Positions 5,307-45,942 of a stretch of 64,000 nt of DNA are shown here, piece after piece. The position numbers were made by a program, and so were the translations under genes. Under the pieces are notes generated by a model. The model saw nothing but the letters and a program-made list of their open reading frames with translations, had not been told where the DNA came from and did not search any database. Each line of letters opens with the position of its first letter. Position 1 is the stretch's first letter. Location of the stretch: IMG/VR virus record IMGVR_UViG_3300020221_000005, positions 1-64,000 of that record. One strand, given 5' to 3'. Source of the DNA: a virus.

Positions 5307-6287
5307 ATGAAAATTCCGTATATTATTACTTCTACGTCTATTACTGCGGTGATTAACGGTAAAACTTATGTGACGGATAAGACTCATAAGGAATATGAGG
5401 CTATTAAGGCGATGTTGGTGTCGGATTCTGTTGAAGTTGACAAGCTGGTTGAATTATTTGATATTACTTCGACGGTTAATCGTTATTGTGAAGGTAAGAT
5501 TTTGGTTAAACATGGTTTGGTATCTTACAATGATGTTCCAGTGGATAATTATGTGACTAAGAAAATTCTTCAATTTATGGATGAGAAGTTGCCGGTTGAA
5601 CCTATTGTGAATTTTTTGAATAGATTGATGAAGAATCCGAGTCGGCGAGCGGTTTCTGAGCTTTACACGTTTTTGGAGCATAAGAATATGCCGTTGACTC
5701 CTGATGGTTATTTTTTGGCATACAAGGGTGTGCAAACGGATTATTGGTCTAAGCACGCGAATCTTTCGACGAGAGTGATTCGTGGAAAAGTTGATAGTTC
5801 TGGTCGGCTTAACAACGCGGTGGGTGAAGTGATTGAAGTTGAACGTAACAATGTTTGTGATGATGCTTCGGTTGGTTGTGGAGAGGGCATTCACGCGGGT
5901 AGTTTGAAGTATGCTAATGATTGGGCGACTTCGGATGGGCGTTTAATGATTGTTAAGATTGACCCGGCCGATGTGGTTAGTGTGCCTACCGATTGTTCGT
6001 GTCAGAAACTTAGGACGTGTAAGTATGAAGTGGTGGCCGAACAGGTTGACAGAAGTGCGTTAAGTGATACTATGACTCCTGAAGATAAAAATCGTGTTCA
6101 GGCAACATCTAATAATGCAGAGTTCTCGACTGATGACTCATCCCTTAAATCGGAAGAATATGACCGTGGTTATTCTGCGGGTGAAAAAGACGCACAGTTG
6201 GGATTAGATTGTATTGATGAATTGTTGACGGATAGTGACTATCGAGATGGATATATTGATGGTTATAACGACTGTGATCCAATGTAG
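5307..6287 (+). CDS. rIIB: RIIB-like protein
   Basis: NPSRRAVSELYTFL, TPDGYFLAYK, CGEGIHAGS, KIDPADVVSVP, KLRTCKYEV. Confidence 0.9.
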   Translation: MKIPYIITSTSITAVINGKTYVTDKTHKEYEAIKAMLVSDSVEVDKLVELFDITSTVNRYCEGKILVKHGLVSYNDVPVDNYVTKKILQFMDEKLPVEPIVNFLNRLMKNPSRRAVSELYTFLEHKNMPLTPDGYFLAYKGVQTDYWSKHANLSTRVIRGKVDSSGRLNNAVGEVIEVERNNVCDDASVGCGEGIHAGSLKYANDWATSDGRLMIVKIDPADVVSVPTDCSCQKLRTCKYEVVAEQVDRSALSDTMTPEDKNRVQATSNNAEFSTDDSSLKSEEYDRGYSAGEKDAQLGLDCIDELLTDSDYRDGYIDGYNDCDPM

Positions 6288-7118: not shown

Positions 7119-7310
7119 ATGATAAAGTGTAAATGTTACAAGTGTGGTAAGGAAGAAGTGTTTGAAGATCATAAACAAGCCTGGATGGCTGGTTGGGATT
7201 TTCTAAGTGATGGTAAAATGATTTGTGGCGACTGTTCGTCAATGTCTTTTTCTAAAGATAATCTTCTTTCGAAAACCGCTAATAAAAAATATGAAAACTC
7301 CGAAGAATAA
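7119..7310 (+). CDS. small Zn-finger protein
   Basis: CxxC...CxxC; start moved to ATG 7119. Confidence 0.65.
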   Translation: MIKCKCYKCGKEEVFEDHKQAWMAGWDFLSDGKMICGDCSSMSFSKDNLLSKTANKKYENSEE

Positions 7311-7653
7311 ATCAAATATAAATAAGATATTCGTACCTTTTACTGGTACGATAGATCAATTATTGAATCACGTTGACAAAATTGATCCTACTCAAGTTGA
7401 AAATGTAGTGGTTAATCATACTGAAGACGTTTTTTTGGATGATAAAACCGCAATTGAAATAATTAAAAGTGAATTGAACTGTGAAAAACAACAGGCGATG
7501 GAGATCTTAAATCAAATTAAACTTGAAGAAATATCTAAAACTCTTAATGATTTAGTTGAAGAAGGTTTGGTAGAAATTAGTGAGTATGACAAAAATGGCG
7601 AACCACTATATTCTTTAACTGAAGCTGGAAAGTTGTTCTCTAAAAAAAAATAA
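7291..7653 (+). CDS. protein with C-terminal winged-helix-like segment
   Basis: LNDLVEEGLVEI...YSLTEAG; start moved to ATG 7291. Confidence 0.6.
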   Translation: MKTPKNKSNINKIFVPFTGTIDQLLNHVDKIDPTQVENVVVNHTEDVFLDDKTAIEIIKSELNCEKQQAMEILNQIKLEEISKTLNDLVEEGLVEISEYDKNGEPLYSLTEAGKLFSKKK

Positions 7654-7668
7654 TTAACAAAAATAAAT

Positions 7669-8004
7669 ATGATTGATGGAAATAATGTTACACTTGAAGT
7701 GGTAAAAGATTCTAAAACAGTTATTAAACGTGGTCCTGGCCGGCCTAAGACCAAAATGACACTTAAACGAGTAGTTTTATTGAATGGCAAACCAGTAGGG
7801 CGTGGTCGACCCGGTAAAACGAGTTGTTCTAATCGAACGGTAGTGTTTATTCCTATAAATGAAACCTATAACGAGTCTGTTCATGGTGTTGGTAAGAAGT
7901 ATATTTCAGGTTTGAATCAATATACGCATCAAATTAAACGGGTTGATTTGAATAACTTTACAAAATTAACTAAAATGACAAACAAAACTATGGTCGAGGC
8001 GTAA
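7669..8004 (+). CDS. basic protein with AT-hook-like motifs
   Basis: KRGPGRPK and GRGRPGK. Confidence 0.65.
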   Translation: MIDGNNVTLEVVKDSKTVIKRGPGRPKTKMTLKRVVLLNGKPVGRGRPGKTSCSNRTVVFIPINETYNESVHGVGKKYISGLNQYTHQIKRVDLNNFTKLTKMTNKTMVEA

Positions 8005-17127: not shown

Positions 17128-17221
17128 GCTGTCGTGACCGGAATTGGATGAACGGCTCAGGTTTCTACCCTGAATGAGATAATATCAAACGTTGCAGGTT
17201 CGAATCCTGCCGACAGTACCA
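17128..17221 (+). tRNA. tRNA-Arg(UCU) with long variable arm
   Basis: acceptor GCTGTCG/CGACAGT, A73, CCA; stem TCAGG/CCTGA, loop TTTCTAC; A20; ~20-nt variable region. Confidence 0.8.
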
Positions 17222-17484: not shown

Positions 17485-17664
17485 ATGAAAAATTATGCAA
17501 TTTATTTAAAAAAAATTAGAGTGGGATACCTTAAAGCAAAAAATTTGACGAACGCAAATAAAAAAGCTTTTAAAAAGTGGTCAACGCTGGTTAAGATAAC
17601 ACCTAAAGACATAAAAGTGGTTTATGTTAAAGAAATAACTTCTCCACTTATAAGGTTTAATTAG
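17485..17664 (+). CDS. hypothetical protein (59 aa, not in track), paralog of 11725..11922
   Basis: MKNYAIYLKKIRVGYLKAKNLTNANKKAFKKW. Confidence 0.65.
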   Translation: MKNYAIYLKKIRVGYLKAKNLTNANKKAFKKWSTLVKITPKDIKVVYVKEITSPLIRFN

Positions 17665-17757
17665 GTTCCATGATGTAATGGTAACATGACAGACTTATAA
17701 TCTGTATATGCTCTAGATTGGAGCGCTATCTCGGTTCGAGTCCGGGTGGAACCACCA
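17664..17757 (+). tRNA. tRNA-Ile(UAU) with long variable arm
   Basis: GGTTCCA/TGGAACC, A73, CCA; stem ACAGA/TCTGT, loop CTTATAA; variable stem GCTCTA/TGGAGC. Confidence 0.85.
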
Positions 17758-20426: not shown

Positions 20427-20735
20427 ATGAAAAATAAAAAAGACAACATCATCGCTGCTCTTGAAAAAACTCAGATTCTTGGCATAGGAGATCGGTGGGG
20501 CGGGTCTGATTATTTGATTCACTCTTGGGATATTGGCGCGGACGAGTCAGATTTCGCGTTGGCGTTTTCTTACACCGATTATGAGGGAATGATTTACGAA
20601 TTTGCATTTACTTGGGAATCAATAAACGATGCCGTTTTGTTTCCCGGTGGATTTTCTCTCAAAGATGATACAGGAGAAATGGTAGATATTCAGTTGTATG
20701 GACTAGAGGCAATAAATGTTACAGAAATATCGTGA
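20427..20735 (+). CDS. hypothetical acidic protein
   Basis: start moved to ATG 20427. Confidence 0.7.
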   Translation: MKNKKDNIIAALEKTQILGIGDRWGGSDYLIHSWDIGADESDFALAFSYTDYEGMIYEFAFTWESINDAVLFPGGFSLKDDTGEMVDIQLYGLEAINVTEIS

Positions 20736-21487
20736 AACTTGACAGTTCAAATAAAAGAATCTTAGTCATTTCCGACATTCATCAAGAATCTGACAAAGCG
20801 AACAAAATAATCAAAAAGGAAGATGCTGATGAAGTTGTGATTTTAGGAGATTTTTTTGATTCTTTTCAGAAAAACTCTGAGAGTGACACTGAAAAAACTT
20901 GTAATTTTTTATTAGAATGTTTTCAAACCGAAAAAATGTTTGTTTTATGGGGAAACCATGACCTTCATTATTTTCACCCCAGTCGACACACGATCTGCTC
21001 AGGATATTCTTCCATTAGACAAACCAGTATTAACACATTATTATATCCGATTAAAAATTATTTGTCAAAAAAATTTAAATGGTATATTCAAATAGATGAT
21101 TTTATTTGCACTCACGCAGGACTTAGTTCATTTCATTTTTATCCTAATCTTAATCTGGAAAAAATTTCTGAATGGTTAGATCAAGAATCAGAAACTGCAA
21201 CAATTAAATTGGAAACAAACGACTCGCATTGGTTCTATGGAGCAGGTAAAGCTCGTCGTGGCAAACTCGAAAAGGGCGGAATTGTTTGGCTTGATTTTAA
21301 TTATGAGTTTGAACCGATAAACGGATTGAAACAGATAATGGGCCACACTTTTGAAAAAATAATTCGACCAGATTATTCGGAAAAGTCAAGCAATCCTAAT
21401 GACTGGCGAAATATCTGCATTGATTGTAATTTAAATCAGTATCTTATTATTGATAACAAAAAAATAAAAGTGGTTGACTTTGTTTAA
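20732..21487 (+). CDS. calcineurin-like metallophosphoesterase
   Basis: SDIH, GDFFD, GNHD, THAG, GHT motifs. Confidence 0.9.
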   Translation: MKLDSSNKRILVISDIHQESDKANKIIKKEDADEVVILGDFFDSFQKNSESDTEKTCNFLLECFQTEKMFVLWGNHDLHYFHPSRHTICSGYSSIRQTSINTLLYPIKNYLSKKFKWYIQIDDFICTHAGLSSFHFYPNLNLEKISEWLDQESETATIKLETNDSHWFYGAGKARRGKLEKGGIVWLDFNYEFEPINGLKQIMGHTFEKIIRPDYSEKSSNPNDWRNICIDCNLNQYLIIDNKKIKVVDFV

Positions 21488-36954: not shown

Positions 36955-37194
36955 ATGAAAATGAAAATATCTGAATTAAAGTCTATTATAAGAGAATGTG
37001 TGCGTGAATATTTAACTGAGAATACTGATGAAGTAAGAAAAGGTACGGTTGAGTTAGAGGGAACTAATTATAATTACGAAGTTGTTGTGAAGGTGGATAT
37101 AAATTCTATTGAACCGGCTCCGTTGGACGCTGCGGATCGTGAAGCTATATCTGATATGATTGTTGCACAAATTTTGAGAGATGGAAAAAAATAG
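36955..37194 (+). CDS. small protein with MKISELKSIIRE leader
   Basis: TATTTAT at 36943. Confidence 0.7.
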   Translation: MKMKISELKSIIRECVREYLTENTDEVRKGTVELEGTNYNYEVVVKVDINSIEPAPLDAADREAISDMIVAQILRDGKK

Positions 37195-37224
37195 ATTTAG
37201 ATTAGGCTGTTCTTTGAATTTGAT

Positions 37225-37600
37225 GGGGATGTAATGGTTTCGACAATAGTTAGAGAGAGTATTTGGCACGTCGGGGATGATAGTTGGCCTCGTAAAGAAT
37301 CTATCAAGAAGATAAACGCTAAAAACGTAATCGCATATGACTTCATTCCTGTTGAGGAAGAAGTTCTTGTTGTGGCTTAATTATAAGTCACCCATAATTA
37401 GGATGATGCACAATAGTTTTAATTATGACATTATTGTGATTGGCATTAAAAAGTGATTTAAGTTAATGTTGAAATATAAATCTTAAGATAAACAACTTTT
37501 GAGTTTTAGAATTGTTTTTACGAAAATATTAAAAACTATAAGCGTGTAGTCAGGTAATTTGTATAATTATTGGACTCGGGTTCAACTCCCGACATCTCCA
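37225..37600 (+). ncRNA. ssrA: tmRNA; tag (A)AKNVIAYDFIPVEEEVLVVA* at 37318-37380; CCA not encoded
   Basis: GGGGATG..GGTTTCGAC 5' end; GGGTTCAACTCCC-GA-CATCTCC-A 3' end with G3.U70; PK1-like segment; ATAAAC|GCT resume site. Confidence 0.92.
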
Positions 37601-37661
37601 GAGCACAGTAGAATATCACCTTCACGTTGGTTGTGCTTGAGTAACGCCGAGAATATTCTGT
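37601..37661 (+). ncRNA. minimal HDV-like (theta-type) self-cleaving ribozyme abutting the tmRNA 3' end
   Basis: P1 GAGCACA/TGTGCTT with G1.U, P2 GTAGAATAT/ATATTCTGT, P3 ACC/GGT, L3 TTCACGTT, P1.1 TC/GA, J4/2 C-C-G-A. Confidence 0.75.
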
Positions 37662-37859
37662 ATTAGTTTAGATTTTACTTTAACGATCTTATTATTCCGT
37701 GGGCAAAGAATTTTAATTTTTGCCAATAATTTTTTTTATTTATTTTATTTAAAATAAGTTGGCAGGATATTCTTAGTATGCATATACTATGAAACAGAAT
37801 GTGAAGTATTCTTCTTTTCATAGGATACTCATTCATTCTGGTATAAATATTAAAAAAGT

Positions 37860-38631: not shown

Positions 38632-38946
38632 ATGAATAAATTTAAATATACGCCGTTGATTTTACCATCGGATGACGAGCAGCTTCAAGCCTACATAAAA
38701 AATCATCGTTTAGTTTTATTGGAGAACGTAATTGAATCGATTAATCATTCGATTGATAAAAGTTTATCTGTCGTTGAAGTTTTCAAATTTGAGAATAGCG
38801 ATTTTATTGTTACGTTAGATCGTAAGAATTTTTTATGCAATATTAAAGAGATATATGATTATTGTATTGAAAATGAGCATTATGAGTTATGCAATAAAAT
38901 TAAAAAAATAAATGTAAGGTTAAACAACAAGTATGAAAAAACATAA
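38632..38946 (+). CDS. hypothetical protein with UvrB/C-like C-terminal motif
   Basis: ENEHYELCNKIK. Confidence 0.65.
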   Translation: MNKFKYTPLILPSDDEQLQAYIKNHRLVLLENVIESINHSIDKSLSVVEVFKFENSDFIVTLDRKNFLCNIKEIYDYCIENEHYELCNKIKKINVRLNNKYEKT

Positions 38947-39652
38947 ACTTATCGATCGTAGTTCACACGTTCATCAGGATAAAAAGATTTCATTAAAAAT
39001 AAACATAAAAGAACAGCAAATTTTAACTGACAAGCAGAAATTGTTTTTGGAATTGGCGTTAAATAAAGAAAGCAAGATAATTTTTGTTTCTGGTCCGGCT
39101 GGCACGAGCAAAACATATCTTGCGATATTGAGTGCGTTAAAGTTATTAAATGATCGTAAGGTTAGTGATTTGCTTTATATTAGAAGTGCGGTAGAGAGTA
39201 GTGATAGCAAGTTGGGTTTTTTACCTGGAGAAAGTCACGAAAAAATGGCGCCATATTTGCAACCATTGATTGACAAGCTTGAGGAATTTTTAAATAGAAG
39301 CGACATTGATTTTTTGCAAAAGAATGAACATATTGATTCTGTGCCGGTAGGATTTTTGCGTGGGTTGAATTGGAATGCTAAAGTTATTATTTCAGATGAG
39401 TCGCAGAACATGACTACTAAAGAATTGGTGACATTGGTAACCAGAGTTGGAGAGTTCAGCAAATTATTTATATTAGGTGATCCGGATCAATCTGATATTG
39501 GAAACAAGAGTGGGTTTAAAAAAATGATTGAATTGTTTTCGGATGAAGATAGTCGAGAAAACGGAGTATATACTTTTGAATTTACTGAGGATGACATTGT
39601 TAGGTCTAAACTGGTTAAATTTTTAATTAAAAAAATGAAAAAGATGGGTTAA
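38933..39652 (+). CDS. phoH: PhoH-family ATPase
   Basis: GPAGTSKT, LGFLPG, FLRG, DESQN, TRVGE, GDPDQSD, DIVRS. Confidence 0.92.
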   Translation: MKKHKLIDRSSHVHQDKKISLKINIKEQQILTDKQKLFLELALNKESKIIFVSGPAGTSKTYLAILSALKLLNDRKVSDLLYIRSAVESSDSKLGFLPGESHEKMAPYLQPLIDKLEEFLNRSDIDFLQKNEHIDSVPVGFLRGLNWNAKVIISDESQNMTTKELVTLVTRVGEFSKLFILGDPDQSDIGNKSGFKKMIELFSDEDSRENGVYTFEFTEDDIVRSKLVKFLIKKMKKMG

Positions 39653-42450: not shown

Positions 42451-42930
42451 ATGAATATTATAAAAAACAATCCGTTATTTCGTTACACATCTCGCGATGA
42501 ATTTTTGACACCCTTTGATAAAATCTTTGATGATTTTTATAAAGCTACTTCTCCGAATTTTGGCAAGGAATTTGGGGTAGATTTTTTTGAAAAGGGTGCA
42601 TATCCTAAGATAAATGTGACCGAGTACGAAAATTTGGTGATTATAGAGGCTGGTATTCCTGGTTTGACTAAAGCTGATATTAATGTGGAGATAGAAACGG
42701 GAGTGTTAACTATTACAGGAAATAAAGTTTCAAAAAATAACACAAACGATGTAATATGTAATTCGTATCGTGAATTAAAGCATAGTAGTTTTGTTCGTAG
42801 TTTTAGTTTGAGTGAAAATATTGATACTGATACAGTTGATGCGAAAGTTGAAAATGGGTTATTAACTATTGTGTTAAAAAAGTTAAAACCGACTAATATT
42901 TCCAACAAGAAAAAGGTTAATATTAGTTAA
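42451..42930 (+). CDS. Hsp20/alpha-crystallin small heat-shock protein
   Basis: YPKINVTE, IPGLTKADI, SFVRSFSL, AKVENGLLTI. Confidence 0.92.
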   Translation: MNIIKNNPLFRYTSRDEFLTPFDKIFDDFYKATSPNFGKEFGVDFFEKGAYPKINVTEYENLVIIEAGIPGLTKADINVEIETGVLTITGNKVSKNNTNDVICNSYRELKHSSFVRSFSLSENIDTDTVDAKVENGLLTIVLKKLKPTNISNKKKVNIS

Positions 42931-44392: not shown

Positions 44393-45227
44393 AATGCGAA
44401 AAGTGCGTAAAATAAGTAAACCCAAGTCTTTTTTAAAATCAAAAAAGTTTTTTAAAAAACAAAATAAAATAAAAAAAATTAAGGTGATAAATATAACCGA
44501 CTCAGTTAGTTCTAACAATATTAAGCCGGTCGAAGTTGTTAGAAAACGTTCAGGAAAAGGAAAAATGTATTTTACAAAAGAAACTGAGGATGCAATTATT
44601 TCTTACAACAACGAGGTTGACGATCTTATAAAAAATCAAATTTTTGAGACTAAGATAAAATTTGCTTTGGAAAAATTGGTAGAGAATATATTTAATACTT
44701 TTAAATTTACGTATTTTGATGTAGGTCCGTTAGAAGTACAAAAAGAAACTTTATCTCATCTTGTAGCAAATCTGCATAAGTATGAATCTGGAAAAGGAAA
44801 AGCTTTTGCATATTTTAGTATAATAGCAAAAAACTATTTAATTTTTCATAATAATACCAATTACAAGCGATATAATCAACATGTAGATATTAGCGAAGAA
44901 AATGAAGAAAACACGGTAAGATTACAATCTGAAGATTCTCACTATAAAAATGTAGAGACACAACAGTTTATAAAGATGATGGTAGAATATTGGGAAAAAA
45001 ATTTAAATGATATTTTTTCTAAAAAAAGAGATTTGAAAATTGCGGAAGCCGTTGTGGAGTTATTTAGAAATAGTGATCGAATAGATTATTTCAATAAAAA
45101 AGCATTATATCTTTATATTAGAGAAATTTCTTCTTGCAAAACGCAGCAGATAACCAAAGTAATTAATAAAATGAAAGAGTATCAAGATAAAATAACGAGG
45201 TTATATATGGAACATGGAAAAATTTGA
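44364..45227 (+). CDS. phage sigma factor, gp55-like (late transcription)
   Basis: MYFTKETEDAI, LHKYESGKGKAFAYFSIIAKN resembling the gp55 region-2 AFAYF motif. Confidence 0.7.
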   Translation: MKKKLLKKNKMRKVRKISKPKSFLKSKKFFKKQNKIKKIKVINITDSVSSNNIKPVEVVRKRSGKGKMYFTKETEDAIISYNNEVDDLIKNQIFETKIKFALEKLVENIFNTFKFTYFDVGPLEVQKETLSHLVANLHKYESGKGKAFAYFSIIAKNYLIFHNNTNYKRYNQHVDISEENEENTVRLQSEDSHYKNVETQQFIKMMVEYWEKNLNDIFSKKRDLKIAEAVVELFRNSDRIDYFNKKALYLYIREISSCKTQQITKVINKMKEYQDKITRLYMEHGKI

Positions 45228-45942
45228 TAATAAGTATTACGCTTATCAACTTGTCGATTCTTCTGACGGCAAGACTTTTTATGTTGGTAAAGGTTGTAAG
45301 AACCGAATGTATAAACATGAAAAGGATGTTAGATTAGGAAAAATTCCCAATAAAACAAATTATAAATTATATTATAAAATAAAAAAATTAATTGACGAAA
45401 ACATTCCTATATTGTACGAAAAATTAACCGAAAATGTTAATGAGTTAGAAGCTTTAGCCTTAGAATCTGCATTTATAGAATATTATGGAATAGAGAATTT
45501 ATGTAATTATTTCAAAAGTTGGTCAGGAAAATCTTTCAGAAGCGAACAGACTAGAAAAAAACAAAGTTTGGCGAATAAAGGACCAAACTCTTATATGTAT
45601 GGCAAACCCAAAACGGCGGATCAAACTTTAAAAAATAAAATTGCTCACTTGGGAAAGAATAACTATAGATATATACATAAAAAGTATACATTTTATAATA
45701 AAAATCTTGATATATTAGAGACTTTAACTCCTTACGATTTTAGAAAAAAATATAACATAGATAGTGGCGGGTTACATTTATTTTTGAAAGGAAAACGTTT
45801 TTCTATAAAAGGCTGGACGTTAGGAATTCCACTGGAAGATATTGAAAAAAACCGAAGATCCAAAATAAGTAAAAAATTAAAAGGAAAGGCTAAAACTATA
45901 ACCCACCGTAAAAACTTATGGAAAAATCGAAAAAAAACTTGA
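45214..45942 (+). CDS. GIY-YIG homing endonuclease (NUMOD3-like segments), free-standing
   Basis: YAYQLVD..FYVGKG..RMYKH, LALE..I, N; SEQTRKKQS..KG..MYGK. Confidence 0.75.
   Translation: MEKFDNKYYAYQLVDSSDGKTFYVGKGCKNRMYKHEKDVRLGKIPNKTNYKLYYKIKKLIDENIPILYEKLTENVNELEALALESAFIEYYGIENLCNYFKSWSGKSFRSEQTRKKQSLANKGPNSYMYGKPKTADQTLKNKIAHLGKNNYRYIHKKYTFYNKNLDILETLTPYDFRKKYNIDSGGLHLFLKGKRFSIKGWTLGIPLEDIEKNRRSKISKKLKGKAKTITHRKNLWKNRKKT

Follow-up and report, generated by a model that had tools for sequence, protein, structure and literature searches.

A theta-type minimal HDV-like ribozyme was found directly abutting the 3' end of a phage tmRNA (ssrA), with its first base at the position following the tmRNA discriminator (ARAGORN end, 37600; P1 start, 37601). 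The reading favored here, with a probability of about 0.8, is that the ribozyme makes the 3' end of the tmRNA, being cotranscribed with it and cutting itself off at the discriminator, after which the end would be healed and CCA added. The sequence analyzed (the window) consists of the first 64 kb of the 103,351-base IMG/VR record IMGVR_UViG_3300020221_000005. The record has a G+C content of 34% and was estimated to be 34% complete (CheckV), which suggests a fragment of a phage of ~300 kb.

The tmRNA scored 122.8 bits against Rfam family RF00023 (cut-off, 47) and contained a tRNA-like domain with G3.U70 as well as a tag reading frame closed by a stop codon (Table 1). Its acceptor pairs GGGGATG (37225-31) with CATCTCC (37593-99), and the G3.U70 pair within it is the alanine determinant. 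The ARAGORN and Rfam placements, together with the bases GAG that follow discriminator A37600, agreed with the first-pass annotation, in which the tmRNA had been described as ending at A37600 without an encoded CCA. Eight tRNAs and one tmRNA were called by ARAGORN in the 64-kb window; six of the eight tRNAs encode CCA, no ribozyme was found beside any of the eight in the descriptor scan, and no signs of a suppressor tRNA or of recoding were seen in the window. Two of these tRNAs, tRNA-Arg(tct) at 17128-17221 and tRNA-Ile(tat) at 17664-17757, have a length of 94 nt and a long variable arm that forms a hairpin, which is uncommon in these isotypes.

The promoter candidate upstream of the tmRNA matched at 9 of 12 positions, which was not above shuffles, and a block (CTGTTCTTTGA) immediately upstream of the gene was common to the window and a related locus, L151. 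No RNA-repair gene was identified by Pfam searches of 40 ORFs, taken from the surroundings of the locus and from other parts of the window; the neighbors were unknowns and a PhoH-like ATPase (38933-39652; PF02562, 169 bits), the latter 1.3 kb 3' of the tmRNA locus. Further genes in the window encode Hsp20 (42451-42930) and a homing-endonuclease-like protein of the GIY-YIG/NUMOD3 type (45214-45942). No match to the tmRNA plus ribozyme was obtained by blastn against 50,697 GenBank phages.

Table 1. Positions in the window of the tmRNA, the ribozyme with its parts, and associated features
Feature	Positions	Strand	Evidence or remarks
Calcineurin-like metallophosphoesterase	20732..21487	+	PF00149, 52 bits; between tRNA-Lys and tRNA-Met
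Weak sigma-70-like promoter candidate, TTGAGA-18-TAGATT	37174..37203	+	~20 nt upstream of tmRNA
tmRNA (ssrA)	37225..37600	+	ARAGORN; Rfam RF00023
Tag reading frame AKNVIAYDFIPVEEEVLVVA and stop	37318..37380	+	ARAGORN, gene positions 94-156
Theta-type minimal HDV-like ribozyme, 61 nt	37601..37661	+	Descriptor scan, CM R1, CM R2
P1 5' strand GAGCACA	37601..37607	+	Pairs with UGUGCUU 37632-37638; 7 bp, first pair G37601.U37638
J1/2 and P2 5' strand	37608..37617	+	P2 is 37608-16/37653-61
P3 ACC/GGU (37618-20/37629-31) around 8-nt L3 UUCACGUU	37618..37631	+	
P1 3' strand (37632-38) and P1.1 3' strand (G37639, A37640)	37632..37640	+	
L4/minimal P4, 6-nt loop GUAACG	37641..37646	+	
J4/2 CCGA, then G37651 and bulged A37652	37647..37652	+	Predicted catalytic C37647
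P2 3' strand	37653..37661	+	
Terminator-like hairpin (37702-37724) and T-run	37702..37740	+	Starts 41 nt past ribozyme

The 61 nt following the discriminator contain nested P1, P2, P3, and P1.1 in canonical order, a C opening J4/2, and a G1.U first pair, which are features of HDV-like ribozymes, as well as the short L4 and the conserved P3/L3 core ACC-U-yC-ACGU-GGU of the theta motif. Every element listed in the first-pass annotation (P1, P2, P3, P1.1, a minimal L4, and J4/2 from C37647) was located. The conserved core of P2 comprises 6 to 7 bp (37611-37616/37653-37658), with the outer two to three pairs being specific to the window; C37617 pairs with G37651, leaving A37652 bulged, and P1.1 is formed by U37622-A37640 and C37623-G37639. 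C37647 aligns with the C after GUAAYR that is invariant in 40 of 40 distinct relatives, and a catalytic role is inferred for it. Cleavage is predicted between A37600 and G37601.

A permissive structure-only descriptor was applied to the two strands of the entire 103-kb record and matched at 37601 only; in dinucleotide-shuffled sequence it matched 0.12 times per 64 kb, so that a chance start at the position following the discriminator would be of the order of 1e-6. When the first base of the descriptor was left free, an extra match appeared at window position 5476 (+), inside an ORF (5307-6287); this match, which lacks a theta-like core, probably arose by chance. Canonical theta ribozymes were collected from IMG/VR by pattern and were located after tRNAs (Thr, Leu, Met, Ala, Pro, and a CTA suppressor) or stood alone. 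Covariance models R1 (P1 and P3) and R2 (P2 and P3) were built from four canonical theta ribozymes only. In the Infernal-type search, which the first-pass annotation had put forward as a check, the best match of R1 in the window was 37601-37657 (24.6 bits, E = 1.9e-4), and model position 1 fell on 37601; the next-best match reached 9.1 bits, leaving 37601 as the single significant match. R2 gave the ribozyme 21.9 bits (E = 0.006). Canonical members scored 40 to 77 bits, and the lower score of the window ribozyme is attributable to its U-A/C-G P1.1, 8-nt L3, and J4/2 of CCGA+GA. Judged by its sequence, the window ribozyme is a divergent theta member. The U-A P1.1 and the 8-nt L3 probably violate the >97% identity constraints of the published RNArobo descriptor (iv). 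Rfam HDV families produced no match over 37560-37720, either at the gathering score or at E ≤ 10, but canonical theta ribozymes in the collected loci were likewise unreported by Rfam, so this null result says little. The minimum free energy fold of the 61 nt (z = -0.39) was uninformative because the fold is a double pseudoknot.

Covariation was assessed in alignments of 40 distinct ribozymes guided by the covariance models, since a plain MAFFT alignment of the canonical theta ribozymes placed the P1 5' strands out of register. In these alignments, which lean towards the modelled helices, double-sided changes were found at all seven pairs of P1 (99.6% of cells paired), all seven pairs of P2 (98.8%), and two of the three pairs of P3, compared with 25 to 43% pairing in slid controls. 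P1.1, which lies outside the models, was paired in 100% of the relatives, with a C-G pair in 27 and a U-A pair in 13, and the pair next to P3 that is equivalent to C37617-G37651, with its one-base bulge, was CG in 14, AU in 11, and UA in 9. These counts bear out two further proposals of the first-pass annotation, that the U-C/G-A P1.1 is a compensatory variant of CC/GG and that C37617 pairs with G37651 around a bulged A; its assignment of the element to the theta/HDV-like class was upheld by the family-model score and covariation together. The first P1 pair was GU in 19 of the 40 relatives, GC in 12, AU in 7, and CG in 2.

A second, structure-blind MAFFT alignment was made from the 12 distinct tmRNA-linked sequences, which are of near-equal length. 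Within it, 99.6% of cells were paired (slid, ~30%) and five pairs showed compensatory changes; three pairs of P1 covaried within this tmRNA-linked subclass. Covariation in homologous tmRNA trailers, the absence of which the first-pass annotation had named as evidence against its proposal, was thus looked for and found. Among the 12 sequences, the first P1 pair was AU in seven and GU in five, so that seven begin with A and the window sequence begins with G (G.U). An A-U first pair slows HDV catalysis.

It is very improbable that the motif arose by chance or that it is what remains of a theta ribozyme that has decayed and lost its activity. The descriptor frequency in shuffled sequence, the lack of an Rfam HDV match, and the noncanonical core (P1.1 with U-A, L3 longer by one U, and J4/2 with G as its third base) would all fit such an origin, but every core position is conserved, including the predicted catalytic C, and the change in P1.1 is compensatory on both strands. 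Further evidence against it comes from the compensatory changes in P1 and P2 among the 12 distinct tmRNA-linked copies from different phages and from the model match (E = 2e-4) with its exact start at 37601; only one copy, L177, with a G-first L3 and an L4 of UUAACA, looks degraded.

The tmRNA-linked subclass is distinguished by a U-A/C-G P1.1, a mostly 8-nt L3, and a C-G pair with a bulged A. The pattern ACCTTCACGTTGGT-N7-GAGTAAC matched nine IMG/VR loci, all immediately 3' of a tmRNA. Relaxed patterns added one locus with a 7-nt L3 (L091), giving 10 IMG/VR loci; looser DNA patterns gave mostly chance matches, of which a P1 filter left only this addition. A metagenome scan produced 13 further tmRNA-linked loci and three without a tmRNA link (L109, L114, and L123), and no matches to the subclass motif were found in 185,579 prokaryote species genomes. 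The 10 IMG/VR and 13 metagenome loci carry at least eight different tag peptides. P1 started at the position following the discriminator in 19 of 19 loci with an ARAGORN-called tmRNA, and the four remaining loci (L003, L006, L108, and L120-like truncations) have the ribozyme directly adjoining a T-arm and acceptor of tmRNA type. An encoded CCA is missing from every tmRNA-linked relative. The P1 sequence differed by lineage (GAGCACA, GAUUGCA, GAACGCA, AAGUGCA, and AAGUACA), with the junction unchanged. None of 33 canonical-core loci was linked to a tmRNA, and the subclass contigs came from samples other than 3300045988, the source of most canonical matches.

Other arrangements of tRNA-like genes and ribozymes were observed among these loci. 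In L110 (1117-1558, -), the T-arm, acceptor, and tag (AKNVIAYDFTPEGVEVELAVA) are unlike those of the window, and the ribozyme and trailer are identical to those of the window, a pattern of sequence similarity that implies recombination at or near the discriminator. In L161 (12360-12492, -), a theta ribozyme begins at +1 after a tRNA-Pro(tgg); its P1.1 is canonical (CC/GG), its L3 has 8 nt, and its P1 (GAGCACA/UGUGCUU) is identical to that of the window. A CCA-encoding tmRNA of the same clade is located on this contig too. Together, L110 and L161 suggest that the ribozyme module moves between the 3' ends of tRNAs and tmRNAs. In L035 (3118-3730, -), a tRNA-like gene of 124 nt begins within 3 nt of the end of a phage tmRNA (RF00023, 52.4 bits), in the place of a ribozyme or terminator, and a canonical theta ribozyme lies 6 kb off on the same contig. 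L019 (7119-7253) has an RNA of 81 nt whose match to tmRNA is confined to the tRNA-like domain (RF00023, 43.1 bits, just below the cut-off); this RNA ends in ..CATCTCCA and is followed at +1 by an A-first theta ribozyme. A ROOL RNA (RF03087, 303 bits) is directly downstream of that ribozyme (7306-7902), which thus lies between two noncoding RNAs.

A survey of the sequence downstream of phage ssrA genes, also among the checks named in the first-pass annotation, was carried out on 76 IMG/VR loci retrieved with a pattern from the tmRNA body that was blind to the 3' trailer. A ribozyme was present at +1 in six loci (three of the window type, L004, L091, and L177), and an encoded CCA was found in none of these six. 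In at least 53 of the other 70 loci, the discriminator is followed by CCA and then by either a terminator or T-rich sequence, and the site has no ribozyme. L004, with a ribozyme, and L142, with an encoded CCA, have a common tag, and their ~97% identity begins shortly before the gene and ends at the discriminator, beyond which they are unrelated; the window and L151 are ~90% identical, with the break at the same base. The occurrence of either CCA or a ribozyme at the same junction in sister tmRNAs is as a role in 3'-end maturation predicts. Prophage integration at ssrA was considered as a cause of the homology break and rejected, the phage being large and the sequence beyond the break consisting of ribozyme and terminator with no integrase module. 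Many CCA-encoding relatives (including L131, L138, L143, L146, L152, and L153) have aberrant T-arms, such as GGGGTGCGACTCCTC, or have no GTTCRA loop, and these tmRNAs were uncalled by ARAGORN.

The ribozyme could instead be active for a purpose other than tmRNA maturation, with host RNase Z or exonucleases making the 3' end; the element might provide a downstream RNA with a 5'-OH, insulate the tmRNA from read-through transcription, or yield a small RNA with decoy or regulatory functions. In principle, a tmRNA lacking CCA could be cleaved at this same position by host RNase Z, so that the need for a ribozyme is not obvious. This explanation would also suit the ~42% of published theta ribozymes that are away from tRNAs and have no known role, the three loci with the same U-A P1.1 and no adjoining tmRNA (L109, L114, and L123), and the A1-type theta ribozyme directly upstream of a ROOL RNA in L019. 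It is nevertheless considered unlikely, because the start is exactly at the position following the discriminator in every tmRNA-linked lineage despite the varied P1 and because encoded CCA and ribozyme are mutually exclusive in sister tmRNAs. Moreover, the 1.1-kb region contained three sites resembling terminators (0.3 expected from shuffles), and a hairpin similar to that at 37702-37724 follows the ribozyme of L004. The terminator-like hairpin within ~40 nt of the window ribozyme implies that no downstream gene is on the same transcript, which leaves no cistron to process and argues against 5' processing of an mRNA.

Under 3'-end maturation by the ribozyme, the tmRNA would be transcribed together with the 61-nt P4-less ribozyme and the terminator, and P1, P1.1, P2, and P3 of the ribozyme would form a nested double pseudoknot. 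The phosphodiester between A37600 and G37601 would then be attacked by the A37600 2'-OH, with catalysis by C37647 and a bound Mg2+, releasing a tmRNA that ends exactly at the discriminator with a 2',3'-cyclic phosphate and a discarded 3' fragment made up of the ribozyme and a trailer of ~80 nt. Before trans-translation, the cyclic phosphate would have to be opened and removed, CCA added, and alanine charged. The cyclic phosphate end, its healing, and the addition of CCA are inferred steps; a 2',3'-cyclic phosphate from HDV-type cleavage blocks CCA addition until it is removed. Cleavage itself would be expected by homology to theta ribozymes that are active in vitro (PMC10879173).

The healing enzyme would be the host's or perhaps the phage metallophosphoesterase (Table 1). 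CCA addition is assigned to the host, given that the searches revealed no CCA-adding enzyme of the phage: matches to CCA-adding enzyme (PF01743), HD (PF01966), SmpB (PF01668), and polynucleotide kinase (PNK)-type kinase (PF13671) domains were all absent from the record, which represents ~34% of the genome, and no CCA-adding enzyme was found in an 89%-complete 303-kb relative. Of the two candidates for healing named in the first-pass annotation, the HD protein was thus not recovered, there being no PF01966 match in the record, and the metallophosphoesterase was present, 16 kb from the tmRNA. Searches of PDB sequences, PHROGs, and NCBIfam named it no further than its superfamily, returning weak matches with generic names, and a second calcineurin-like metallophosphoesterase domain occurs in the record (G000, 71216-74419). 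Homologues of the former were found in three of five other ribozyme-bearing records and in none of five larger CCA-type relatives, a comparison with no phylogenetic control. That this enzyme opens or removes the 2',3'-cyclic phosphate is speculative. It is also doubtful, although the presence of homologues in four of six ribozyme-bearing records (this one included) and in none of the five CCA-type relatives would fit, that the cyclic phosphate serves as a lock, keeping the tmRNA uncharged until the phage metallophosphoesterase opens the end and so allowing the phage to time the use of its tag. If this were true, ribozyme and encoded CCA would represent two regulatory states, beyond two processing routes.

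A full-text literature search found no paper linking tmRNA and HDV-like ribozymes, in keeping with the first-pass annotation, which knew of no described tmRNA-linked case. A tmRNA-linked HDV-like ribozyme is apparently unpublished, a role at the 3' end having been published only for phage tRNAs; the window contributes a subclass with its own sequence features, together with the evidence of a swap between CCA and ribozyme. No small ribozymes other than theta ribozymes are known to have been assigned a part in the maturation of RNAs of translation, and a tmRNA partner widens that role to ribosome rescue. The swap at one junction between tmRNAs that are ~97% identical amounts to an evolutionary experiment supporting a processing role, and pairs of the L004/L142 type provide matched constructs. 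Descriptors used in searches for HDV-like ribozymes would be broadened by the subclass (U-A in P1.1, 8-nt L3, and C-G with a bulged A), and a biochemical question is raised as to which activity clears the 2',3'-cyclic phosphate ahead of CCA addition.

The closest known systems are the theta ribozymes, minimal HDV-like ribozymes that abut tRNA 3' ends in gut Caudoviricetes (Kienbeck et al. 2024, Nat Commun 15:1559, PMC10879173). In vitro, four canonical theta ribozymes, among them one with an elongated J4/2, undergo Mg2+-dependent self-cleavage that yields a 2',3'-cyclic phosphate and a 5'-OH and is abolished by a C-to-U change; published cleavage sites are within ±5 nt, mostly ±1, of the tRNA 3' end, and 95.5% of the partner RNAs are without an encoded CCA (PMC10879173). 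The layout of theta ribozyme no. 1 in the supplement of that paper is P1-AA-P2-ACC-T-CC-ACGT-GGT-P1'-GG-GTAACG-CTAA-P2', and that of the window ribozyme is P1-..-P2-C-ACC-T-TC-ACGT+T-GGT-P1'-GA-GTAACG-CCGA+GA-P2'. The fold, segment order, P3/L3 core, and invariant C opening J4/2 are thus the same, as is the predicted cut at the position following the discriminator of an RNA without an encoded CCA; the L4 GUAACG is identical to that of theta ribozyme no. 1, and canonical members, too, have an elongated J4/2 with a covarying extra pair. In contrast to the published cases, the partner is a tmRNA instead of a tRNA, with identical geometry. The pipeline of PMC10879173 used tRNAscan-SE only, which misses tmRNAs, and the paper never mentions tmRNA or ssrA; some of the ~40% of published theta ribozymes described as "isolated" may therefore adjoin RNAs invisible to tRNAscan-SE. 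The subclass motifs were absent from portions of the supplementary text of the same paper. The subclass also differs in its P1.1 of U-A/C-G (canonical, C-G/C-G), in the 8-nt L3 of most copies, and in its J4/2 of CYRA+GA with a fixed C-G pair. The L3 of the genomic HDV ribozyme likewise has 8 nt, the first being U and the sixth G, as in the window ribozyme.

Genomic HDV/drz ribozymes (Webb and Luptak family) also share with the window ribozyme the nested double pseudoknot, the G1.U wobble at the cleavage site, a 7-bp P1, a 3-bp P3, a 2-bp P1.1, and a catalytic C starting J4/2. They differ in P4, which here is a 6-nt loop, and the element is missed by the Rfam models of the HDV family. The product required in canonical bacterial tmRNA maturation is the same, namely, discriminator-CCA charged by AlaRS via G3.U70. 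Canonically, the 3' end is made either by exonucleolytic trimming to an encoded CCA or by RNase Z followed by CCA addition. In the window phage, an RNA catalyst acting in cis would replace the endonuclease and would leave a cyclic phosphate instead of a 3'-OH, whereas sister phage tmRNAs retain the canonical encoded-CCA route.
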